Origin: Escherichia phage MirsaeidiM_Esher1
DNA: 64,000 bases
Sequence record: PQ438048.1
Strand: one strand, 5' to 3'
The position numbers and the translations under genes were made by a program. The notes below the pieces were generated by a model. That model did not search any database and was not told the DNA's origin. It saw nothing but the letters and a program-made list of their open reading frames with translations. Shown here piece by piece: positions 23,720-24,199 of the stretch; the first letter of the stretch is position 1, and every line of letters begins with the position of its first letter.

Positions 23720-24199
23720 CACACCTCCATTCTTGTTAAGATGTTTCGTACTGTACTTCATACTGATCTATAGATCAAGTATTATTTATAATAATTTATT
23801 ATTTTATTTTTTAATTGATAGAAGTTGATCTGTACGTACCAGTTCTGATACACTGTACCTGTTTGTTAGATCTAATAATTATTTATTATTAATATTTAAT
23901 AATTATTAATCTAGTACGGAGTACAGTACTTGAGTACAGAGTACTACATCAACAACCTAAAACCTTAACTCGCTGCGCTCGTTAATAGATTTCTAGGGTA
24001 ACATACTTCGAACACAAAAGTCAAGAGTTTTATTAAAATTATTTTCTGTGTGCAAAAAACCTTGCTTAAACAGGTAGCAATAGTATAGCCTATAACATAA
24101 GCTTCATAAGAGGCTCGTAGAGCAAGTTCCCTTACTAGGTAAGGTGATTTATCATCTTATATATAAAAAGTGCGTCAGAGACGCGTTTAGGAGGCTAGA
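23720..24199. promoter_or_regulatory. AT-rich divergent control region between leftward and rightward transcription units
   Basis: No ORFs; contains ACTGTAC/GTACAGT words in both orientations, a perfect GATCTATAGATC palindrome and a near-pure A/T palindromic core (23870-23910). Confidence 0.45.

Follow-up and report, generated by a model that had tools for sequence, protein, structure and literature searches.

A probable compound region of divergent and convergent host-type promoters in a non-coding gap of a phAPEC8-like Escherichia phage

The subject of this analysis is a non-coding gap at positions 23718-24199 of a 64,000-nucleotide (nt) stretch of the genome of Escherichia phage MirsaeidiM_Esher1 (PQ438048.1; the whole stretch is referred to as the window), at which leftward and rightward genes diverge. 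We conclude that this gap is probably a compound region of divergent and convergent promoters of the host sigma-70 type in a virulent phage. By its sequence the genome is a Phapecoctavirus (phAPEC8-like, Stephanstirmvirinae): window positions 22500-25500 share 99.2% identity with Escherichia phage phAPEC8_ev052 and have matches in 152 phage records. In the proposed arrangement, a leftward promoter (P_L1) and a rightward promoter (P_R1) would stand back to back around the first of two blocks of A+T-rich DNA, and a distal leftward promoter (P_L2) would fire against P_R1, so that about 127 base pairs (bp) could be transcribed from both sides. Leftward transcripts would lead into a module of small open reading frames (ORFs), transfer RNA (tRNA), terminase and structural genes, and rightward transcripts from P_R1, and possibly from a weaker promoter (P_R2), into a nucleotide-metabolism module. 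These sites would be used by host RNA polymerase, the A+T blocks may serve as upstream activating or easily melted DNA, the face-to-face layout may cause interference between the two directions of transcription, and a set of repeated AGTAC or AGTAT (AGTAY) words together with an invariant downstream element may be regulatory sites for some factor.

Phages of the phAPEC8 type are widely isolated and are therapeutic candidates, and their control elements and origins have so far been unmapped. The locus has been unannotated and undescribed until now, while the kind of element is a familiar one, and if the locus is only a promoter region its biology is ordinary. The analysis provides a testable map of the main internal control region, with three promoters, a recurring invariant downstream element and two exceptional A+T blocks. 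Two parts merit experiment: the TGnTACCCT promoter, which is repeated along with the fixed element that follows it, and the A+T blocks, which are unique.

Predicted promoters of the gap

Every position of the window was scanned with a simple sigma-70 matrix that scores the two hexamers with a spacer penalty and a bonus for a TGn extension. At a threshold of at least 8, the gap contains exactly three sites, each of which scores at least 10 and all of which are correctly oriented. The proximal leftward site, P_L1 (23750-23778, minus strand, score 10.2), consists of a -35 element TTGATC (23778-23773), a 17-nt spacer and a -10 element TACAGT (23755-23750). Its predicted start near 23743 lies 26 nt ahead of the ATG of a 61-amino-acid ORF whose ribosome-binding site, GGAGG, is found at 23728-23724, and this geometry supports the assignment. 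The central rightward site, P_R1 (23825-23854, plus strand, score 11.2), has a -35 element TTGATC (23825-23830), an 18-nt spacer containing the TGa of an extended -10 element, a -10 element TACACT (23849-23854) and a predicted start near 23861. The distal leftward site, P_L2 (23995-24024, minus strand, score 11.6), is placed 240 bp rightward of P_L1 and combines a -35 element TTGACT (24024-24019), an 18-nt spacer with TGt, a -10 element TACCCT (24000-23995) and a predicted start near 23988. Nearest to the first rightward gene, a weaker candidate below the scan threshold, P_R2 (24062-24089, plus strand), reads TTGCTT-N16-TATAGC.

P_L1 and P_R1 point away from each other, their -35 elements separated by 46 nt that are mostly filled by A+T block 1 (23780-23817, 97% AT). 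The starts of P_R1 and P_L2 face each other across about 127 nt that hold A+T block 2 (23873-23909, 100% AT), which is transcribable from both promoters, together with a five-word AGTAC array and the invariant element. As both P_L1 and P_R1 have TTGATC as their -35 element, each contains a GATC site, and a Dam-dependent effect on these promoters is conceivable.

The same ordered set of sites recurs in diverged relatives, in which the syntenic gaps of phiWec188, phi92 and Klebsiella phage 05F01 were located through their flanking proteins. In order along the gap, the scan gives scores of 13.0 (minus), 9.9 (plus), 11.6 (minus) and 9.3 (plus) in phiWec188, and of 12.0 (minus), 9.0 (plus) and 13.9 (minus) in phi92, with two weaker plus-strand sites in the latter (8.0 and 9.3); Klebsiella phage 05F01 has the two leftward promoters in common. 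All three have a syntenic counterpart of P_L1, TTGACT-N17/18-TAGAGT. The equivalent of P_R1 is TTGATC-N18(TGt)-TACTAT in phiWec188 and TTGTTA-N17(TGt)-TAGTAT in phi92. The hexamers of P_L2 are kept in both, with diverged spacers, and the phi92 version (TTGACA-N17-TGcTACCCT) accounts for the score of 13.9. At the position of P_R2, phiWec188 has TTGTGT-N16(TGc)-TATAGT, the site scoring 9.3, and other relatives have TATAAC or TATAGT. The overlap between the facing promoters is 90-94 nt in phiWec188 and phi92. Since the left half of the gap is unalignable between these lineages, the recurring promoter sites are not a matter of inherited sequence identity.

Within the genus, the hexamers of 11 Phapecoctavirus sequences are invariant, including the -35 element of P_L1 and the -10 element of P_R1, save for one -35 change in phAPEC8 and one change toward consensus in BI-EHEC, in which the P_L1 -10 element is TACAAT. 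Substitutions fall instead in the spacer of P_L2 (24001, 24004 and 24013). The 15 top-scoring promoter sites of the window all lie on the strand of the local genes, which argues that the scan detects real features and that host-type promoters are used throughout the phage. For rV5, promoters for the host polymerase scattered across the genome have likewise been proposed (PMC3606486).

The predicted arrangement resembles back-to-back sigma-70 promoters that share A+T-rich DNA in its TTGAC-type -35 elements, its 17-18-nt spacers, its TAnnnT -10 elements with frequent TGn extension, and the A+T tract directly upstream of both -35 elements. Activation of the UP-element type is familiar from Escherichia coli rrnB P1 and from the strong early promoters of T5 and T7; the tract in the gap differs from these in being 38 nt of nearly pure A+T, in being duplicated and in being absent from the other promoters of the phage. 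Face-to-face promoters also form switches based on transcriptional interference in coliphages 186 (pR/pL) and P2 (Pe/Pc). The gap is like them, in layout only, in that its promoters face each other, with an overlap of 90-127 nt in three lineages, at a boundary between gene modules, but the phage is virulent, has no repressor or integrase module, and its interference would be a prediction from layout.

Several observations weigh against this interpretation. The literature on the relatives yields no mapped transcription start and no transcriptome data. The three sites stand only in the middle of the window's promoter predictions (at ranks 30, 38 and 60 of 122), and about 0.9 matches of such score would be expected in the gap by chance. 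Stronger leftward promoters are predicted just downstream, at 23535 and 22978, which would make the leftward genes independent of the gap, and the rightward promoter nearest the gene is weak in the window genome. Viable relatives lack individual elements, namely the P_L1 -10 element in EP57 and P_R1 in nieznany. Finally, the upstream DNA of the other co-oriented predicted promoters has an ordinary AT fraction (0.64 +/- 0.10), so that the pure A+T blocks are not a generic promoter feature and need an additional explanation.

One exact copy of the T4-type late promoter sequence, TATAAATA, is present in A+T block 1 on the minus strand. It was rejected as part of a late-promoter system because the sequence occurs only 12 times genome-wide and shows no strand or module bias.

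A repeated promoter unit with an invariant downstream element

The strongest single argument that P_L2 is a real and purpose-built promoter is that it is repeated as a unit together with the sequence downstream of it. An element at 23963-23988 (minus strand) carries the core CGAGCGCAGCGAG (23981-23969), which begins 13 nt past the -10 element and is flanked by TTAAC and GTTAA. This 26-nt element is identical in Phapecoctavirus and in phiWec179/188, its core is kept in phi92, and it is recognisable in Klebsiella phage 05F01. Among 11 genomes, the 43 nt from 23958 to 24000 contain 0 variable columns where about 5 would be expected. Relative to the start of P_L2 the element occupies roughly +7 to +21, a position typical of a repressor operator or a leader signal.

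A second unit of this type is found in the window at 62419-62466 (plus strand), where TTGACT-N17-TGgTACCCT is followed after 13 nt by CGAGCGATAGCGAG; it corresponds to about 15.08 kb in the fully annotated relative Schickermooser. A search of Schickermooser with the -10 motif identified paralogs at 15.08 and 128.62 kb, both with the same -35 element, TGnTACCCT and 13-nt spacing to CGAGCGATAGCGAG, which brings the copies in that genome to three including the one in the gap. The two copies in the window compare with 0.00 in 100 shuffles. An earlier note on this DNA had suggested a bidirectional promoter/operator region, and the promoter half of that suggestion is supported by the three oriented sigma-70-type sites, their invariant hexamers, the ordered set in phiWec188 and phi92 and these paralogs; the operator half is more doubtful, as discussed below.

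The unit at 62419-62466 points antisense into a minus-strand ORF for a hydrophobic 69-amino-acid product (62578-62787), and a strong promoter on the minus strand (62283-62254) stands back to back with it (region 62217-62787). Its transcript would open with two stable hairpins and may be a small antisense RNA.

A scan of IMG/VR with the conserved element returned a single contig, which is phiWec-like. In a metagenome scan with the 19-mer AACTCGCTGCGCTCGTTAA, 48 exact matches were obtained, of which 3 are related to the phage and the others are unrelated repeats or chance. Several of the matches form sequence families, some of them beside tRNA-like sequence or GGGGAGAGG hairpins, and the 19-mer is therefore present in other repeated elements as well.

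Repeated words and palindromes as a possible operator

The gap contains an array of short repeated words and inverted repeats. The earlier note had listed ACTGTAC/GTACAGT words in both orientations, and ACTGTAC is indeed present at 23750 and 23852 (23852-23858, beside the central palindrome described below) and GTACAGT at 23921, whereas the fourth word, at 23934, is GTACAGA. The inverted repeat that it described is also confirmed, GTACTGTACT (23748-23757) being exactly complementary to 23920-29, and its arms extend imperfectly to about 23748-23768 and 23909-23929. The left arm (23748-23768) is made of the words GTACT, GTACT and ATACT, with GTAC at 23748 and 23753, and overlaps the -10 element of P_L1; it is removed by a 38-nt deletion in EP57. 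The right arm and its array (23909-23945) comprise five AGTAC words at 23913, 23920, 23925, 23933 and 23940. When 23740-23950 was folded as single-stranded DNA and compared with shuffled sequences, the structure was more stable than all of them (z = -4.9, 0/200). Near the midpoint of this large inverted repeat lies the central palindrome GTACGTAC (23832-23839).

A tentative alternative, which we consider possible and still doubtful, is that the gap is an operator array through which transcription is switched in time. The words, together with the central GTACGTAC, would bind a phage-encoded or GTAC-recognising protein, and the bound protein would block or redirect the promoters and thereby choose between transcription of the metabolism module and of the structural module. 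Consistent with this, CTGTAC and AGTAC are the most enriched words of the gap (62-fold and 41-fold), and the right arm holds two AGTACnGAGTAC 12-mers 20 nt apart, equal to two helical turns. The words are also well placed for such a role, as part of the left and central words coincides with the -10 element of P_L1 and with the spacer and -10 element of P_R1, and others lie downstream of P_L2. Homologous words are found in Klebsiella phage 05F01, with TGTACGTACAGAGTACTAC between its two A+T blocks and the homologue AGAACTGGTTTGTACGTACAGA of the central palindrome, both in opposite orientation, and phi92/VEcB has AGTAT words at the equivalent place. In BI-EHEC the central palindrome has become GTATGCATAC and is still palindromic, a symmetric change that could nonetheless arise from templated mutation in a palindrome without selection.

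Regulators of the YefM type bind palindromes with a GTAC core (PMC1802561), and the clustered GTAC-core words and central GTAC palindrome of the gap are like YefM/Phd-type operators. The gap nevertheless contains no TGTACA hexamer, the C of its GTAC words is dispensable, and no such protein was found nearby, the ten flanking small ORFs giving zero Pfam matches above threshold; membership of this operator type was rejected on these grounds, and the ten ORFs likewise offer no candidate binding protein for an operator in general. The gap also lacks an exact LexA box (CTGT-N8-ACAG), its closest site (23924-23939) having one mismatch in the essential CTGT half, and a search of the gap for LexA, DnaA, IHF, Fis, CRP and TGTACA sites returned only one-mismatch matches at chance level. 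Further evidence against an operator comes from the relatives. phiWec179/188 have no AGTAC-type words and no GTAC cluster, and carry different words, AACTA/TTAGTT. In viable relatives the words tolerate C-to-T change, change of copy number and deletion: BI-EHEC has altered 9 of the 10 GTAC sites of the gap, dw-ec lacks one unit (15 nt) of the right-hand array, and EP57 has lost the left words.

The EP57 deletion of about 38 nt takes the P_L1 -10 element along with the left words. In nieznany, 81 nt (23787-23867) between two similar A+T repeats are absent, which may be an assembly collapse.

The perfect 12-bp palindrome GATCTATAGATC reported by the earlier note is present at 23765-23776. It contains two Dam-type GATC sites, and its right half, which is the -35 element of P_L1, is invariant, while its left half is mutated in Schickermooser, tuntematon and phAPEC8. 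Because the window holds 25 perfect 12-bp palindromes against 18 +/- 4 expected, and this one is broken in several relatives, it is unremarkable and, taken alone, weak evidence.

GTAC depletion and the origin of the GTAC cluster

GTAC is the most under-represented tetranucleotide of the window, with 48 copies and an observed/expected ratio of 0.26, and 10 of these copies fall inside 23748-23944. For this cluster the Poisson tail probability is 1e-8 if base composition sets the expectation and <1e-15 if the window's own rate does. In the whole genome of Schickermooser (151 kb) there are 147 GTAC copies where 535 are expected, and the gap locus is again the top cluster. The depletion is equal in all flanking contexts, and it is therefore the tetranucleotide itself that is avoided. 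CCGG, GGCC and CTAG are also depleted in the window and in Schickermooser.

BI-EHEC provides a direct view of this avoidance. Its 9 altered gap sites have become GTAT or ATAC with the rest of the region kept, and in its right-arm array all five words are without GTAC (four GTAT, one ATAC). In a comparison with Schickermooser over a longer region (OL505078.1, 30001-80000), 23 of the 41 GTAC sites that align (56%) are gone from BI-EHEC and 0 are new, against a tetranucleotide median loss of 6%. Most of the losses are transitions that affect the outer base pair of the site, and they comprise 13 synonymous to 4 non-synonymous changes, compared with 586 to 151 for other substitutions. A sequencing or basecalling artefact was ruled out, and the changes were taken as real evolution, because the synonymous ratio resembles that of other substitutions and gaps are few. 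The loss looks recent and motif-specific, and would fit restriction avoidance or deamination of methylated C.

Elsewhere the pressure differs. GTAC is only mildly depleted in phi92/VEcB (observed/expected 0.67). In phiWec188 (LC739537.1, 40000-89999) CTAG is present 0 times in 50 kb versus 154 expected and GTAC is again only mildly depleted, which indicates that sister lineages avoid different palindromes. We conclude that the GTAC words are AGTAY repeats in which the C is dispensable, and that the GTAC cluster is a by-product of such repeats in a genus under lineage-specific pressure against GTAC. The striking cluster is thus an AGTAY array in a genome being purged of GTAC and not a restriction-related device, a reading that is useful for the interpretation of host-range and restriction data.

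Two methyltransferase-like ORFs have targets that could bear on GTAC or GATC patterns. One is in the window (56088-56771, plus strand; 227 amino acids) and has the C5-cytosine-type motifs GFPPC and ENP; the other lies outside it, at 100304-101098 of Schickermooser (264 amino acids), and has the N6-adenine-type motifs EPSAGEGAF and NPPF. Searches of both against Pfam and NCBIfam gave no family match, and a PDB sequence search with the N6-adenine-like ORF gave insignificant matches only.

A+T blocks and a possible replication origin

The earlier note had described an A/T palindromic core, which resolves into the two blocks introduced above, the second of them itself palindromic (an 18+18-nt palindrome at 23873-23908, 89% complementary). 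No other stretch of the 64-kb window has at least 95% AT over 38 nt. Helix stability was profiled by the nearest-neighbour method in 40-, 100- and 200-bp windows along the 151-kb Schickermooser genome, and its two least stable 40-bp windows are the A+T blocks (-34.2 and -36.7 kcal/mol; mean -51.5, standard deviation 3.4). The counterpart of block 2 is the lower of the two, as block 2 is in the 64-kb window, and the counterpart of block 1 is second. The 200-bp window around the blocks is also the global minimum of that genome (-218 versus a mean of -257, standard deviation 8.7). The blocks may act as upstream activating DNA of unusual strength, as a platform for binding or as an unwinding element, and the gap is the best computational candidate for an unwinding site.

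It is therefore worth weighing whether the locus is a replication origin, possibly alongside its promoters, although we regard this as rather unlikely. In this model the least stable DNA would be unwound either by P_L1 and P_R1 transcribing away from each other or by P_L2 transcribing into the A+T blocks. The phage helicase-primase would enter at the resulting R-loop or opened duplex, and an initiator would recognise the AGTAY words or the inverted repeat. Besides the stability minimum and the uniqueness of the blocks, this reading draws on the maintenance of an A+T core at the junction in four lineages even though its sequence is not conserved, on the position of the blocks between or downstream of promoters and beside short repeated words and a large inverted repeat, and on local enrichment of GATC (4 in 108 nt at the gap, P = 0.0015; 5 in 130 nt in phiWec188, P = 0.0007). 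The literature holds no defined origin for this phage group.

Known origins offer partial parallels. The primary origin of T7 consists of promoters 1.1A and 1.1B with an A+T-rich region, and oriF and oriG of T4 combine a middle promoter with a downstream unwinding element. The gap is like these in having a promoter directed into the genome's least stable A+T DNA, and differs in having no replication-specific skew and distant replication genes; the likeness is one of layout only. The phage also has a T7-like helicase-primase and a family A polymerase (for rV5, PMC3606486). Short repeated words beside an A+T block also recall iteron-type origins (lambda ori, plasmids), and the GATC enrichment recalls oriC, P1 oriR and P1 pac; in contrast to those, the words here are 5-7 nt long and show irregular spacing and no conservation, GATC sites number only four, and the gap has neither an adjacent initiator gene nor DnaA boxes.

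Evidence against an origin comes from GC skew, which the earlier note had put forward as a check. The sign flip at 24 kb merely tracks gene orientation and carries no replication signal: skew on the coding strand is positive in all six gene blocks of Schickermooser (+0.07 to +0.18), which explains the flip by transcription, and it is lowest in the structural block at the junction. A replication component from an origin at the gap should lift the skew of the two adjoining blocks above that of the head-on blocks, and no such rise is seen. In rV5 the authors likewise attributed the skew to gene orientation (PMC3606486). In addition, the replication genes are 40-75 kb from the gap and adjoin the other divergent junction of the genome, no DnaA or IHF sites are present in the gap, and the repeated words vary in number, are deleted or mutated in viable relatives and are absent in phiWec188. 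At the 100-bp scale, the start of the Schickermooser terminal repeat (its first 100 bp) is even less stable than the gap blocks and is the minimum for windows of that size in the genome. The earlier suggestion of a replication origin thus retains circumstantial backing from the unique, least stable A+T DNA between divergent promoters and finds none in GC skew.

The case for an origin rests on the A+T blocks and on the promoter-into-A+T layout, and it would be compatible with the promoter map. It is also unlikely that the locus is the primary replication origin of Stephanstirmvirinae phages, coupling the start of replication to the switch from metabolism to structural transcription. If it were, negative supercoiling produced by the back-to-back promoters of host type would open the least stable A+T block for the helicase-primase, and P_L2 with its invariant element would supply or regulate a priming transcript.

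About 1.8 kb of non-coding DNA (1-613 and 149972-151194) surrounds the 329-bp terminal repeat of Schickermooser, which is another candidate unwinding or entry site.

Other explanations

That the gap has no dedicated function beyond spacing, its low-complexity DNA having arisen by slippage and duplication with the GTAC cluster as a by-product, is improbable. The two halves of the module do form a 39-nt direct repeat of 72% identity, the length of A+T block 1 varies through indels among relatives, whole units are gained or lost, and no alignment between genera is possible in the left part of the gap. Against this, the leftward promoter, the A+T core, the rightward promoter and the distal leftward promoter with its element recur in diverged lineages, the 43 invariant nt would be expected to contain about 5 variable columns, and all four lineages examined retain a junction gap of about 375-490 nt in genomes with otherwise tight packing. 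A packaging site or physical genome end, suggested by the nieznany GenBank record beginning inside the gap, can be dismissed almost entirely, as that record was cut arbitrarily where the first codon region of an ORF lies, BME3 of the sister genus has a 342-bp repeat, and the Schickermooser record ends in a 329-bp direct terminal repeat (its first 60 nt recur at 150866; reported as 328 bp in PMC6563267), which places the physical ends about 54.5 kb from the gap.

Genome context of the gap

The compound promoter region that we favour lies at a boundary between gene modules. As the earlier note had stated, the gap is divergent and non-coding: the minus-strand 61-amino-acid ORF (23532-23717) is on its left and a plus-strand 107-amino-acid ORF (24200-24523) on its right, GenBank annotations of relatives concur, and the sign of the GC skew flips. 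In Schickermooser the leftward module contains terminase, capsid and tail genes, and the rightward module encodes RNA ligase, DNA ligase, exonucleases, thymidylate synthase, ribonucleotide reductase and related genes; the module boundary is at the gap in all annotated relatives. Schickermooser has two divergent junctions, the gap locus (about 480 nt) and a 118-nt junction at 130.3 kb beside the replication-gene block.

Leftward of the 61-amino-acid ORF come two further small ORFs and then ten tRNA genes (20656-22739). Four consensus-like extended -10 promoters on the minus strand (23507-23535, 22949-22978, 22362-22391 and 21234-21263; scores 12.9-13.7) sit between the small leftward ORFs and inside the tRNA cluster, from which it follows that the tRNAs would have their own promoters, independent of the gap.

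Annotation inside the gap in public records is limited to an automatic 55-nt 'repeat_region' in three Danish isolates, which coincides with either arm of the inverted repeat. When 22700-24600 was scanned against Rfam at E values up to 1, the only match was a tRNA edge at 22700-22739 and 23400-24600 gave none, and plasmids and E. coli genomes and chromosomes showed zero similarity to the locus. Two deeper syntenies were considered and dropped: in rV5 the equivalent strand switch is a 100-nt gap with different neighbours, and in Seunavirus KE23 the ORF61-like gene is not at a divergent junction.

The leader of the first rightward gene (24137-24194, plus strand) contains the block AGGTAAGGTGATT (24137-24149), a hairpin GCGTCAGAGACGC (24172-24184) and a ribosome-binding site AGGAGG (24189-24194) ahead of the ATG at 24200. 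An upstream ORF at 24144-24203 (plus strand) has a GTG start and 19 codons, and its TGA stop overlaps the ATG of the 107-amino-acid gene (ATGA). It was not adopted as a feature, as its length is not conserved (8 codons in phi92, 6 in phiWec188) and only its first nucleotides, within AGGTAAGGTGATT, are kept. The block AGGTAAGGTGATT itself is kept in phi92 and phiWec188, and in the phi92 leader a hairpin with a different stem sequence is retained ahead of the ribosome-binding site.

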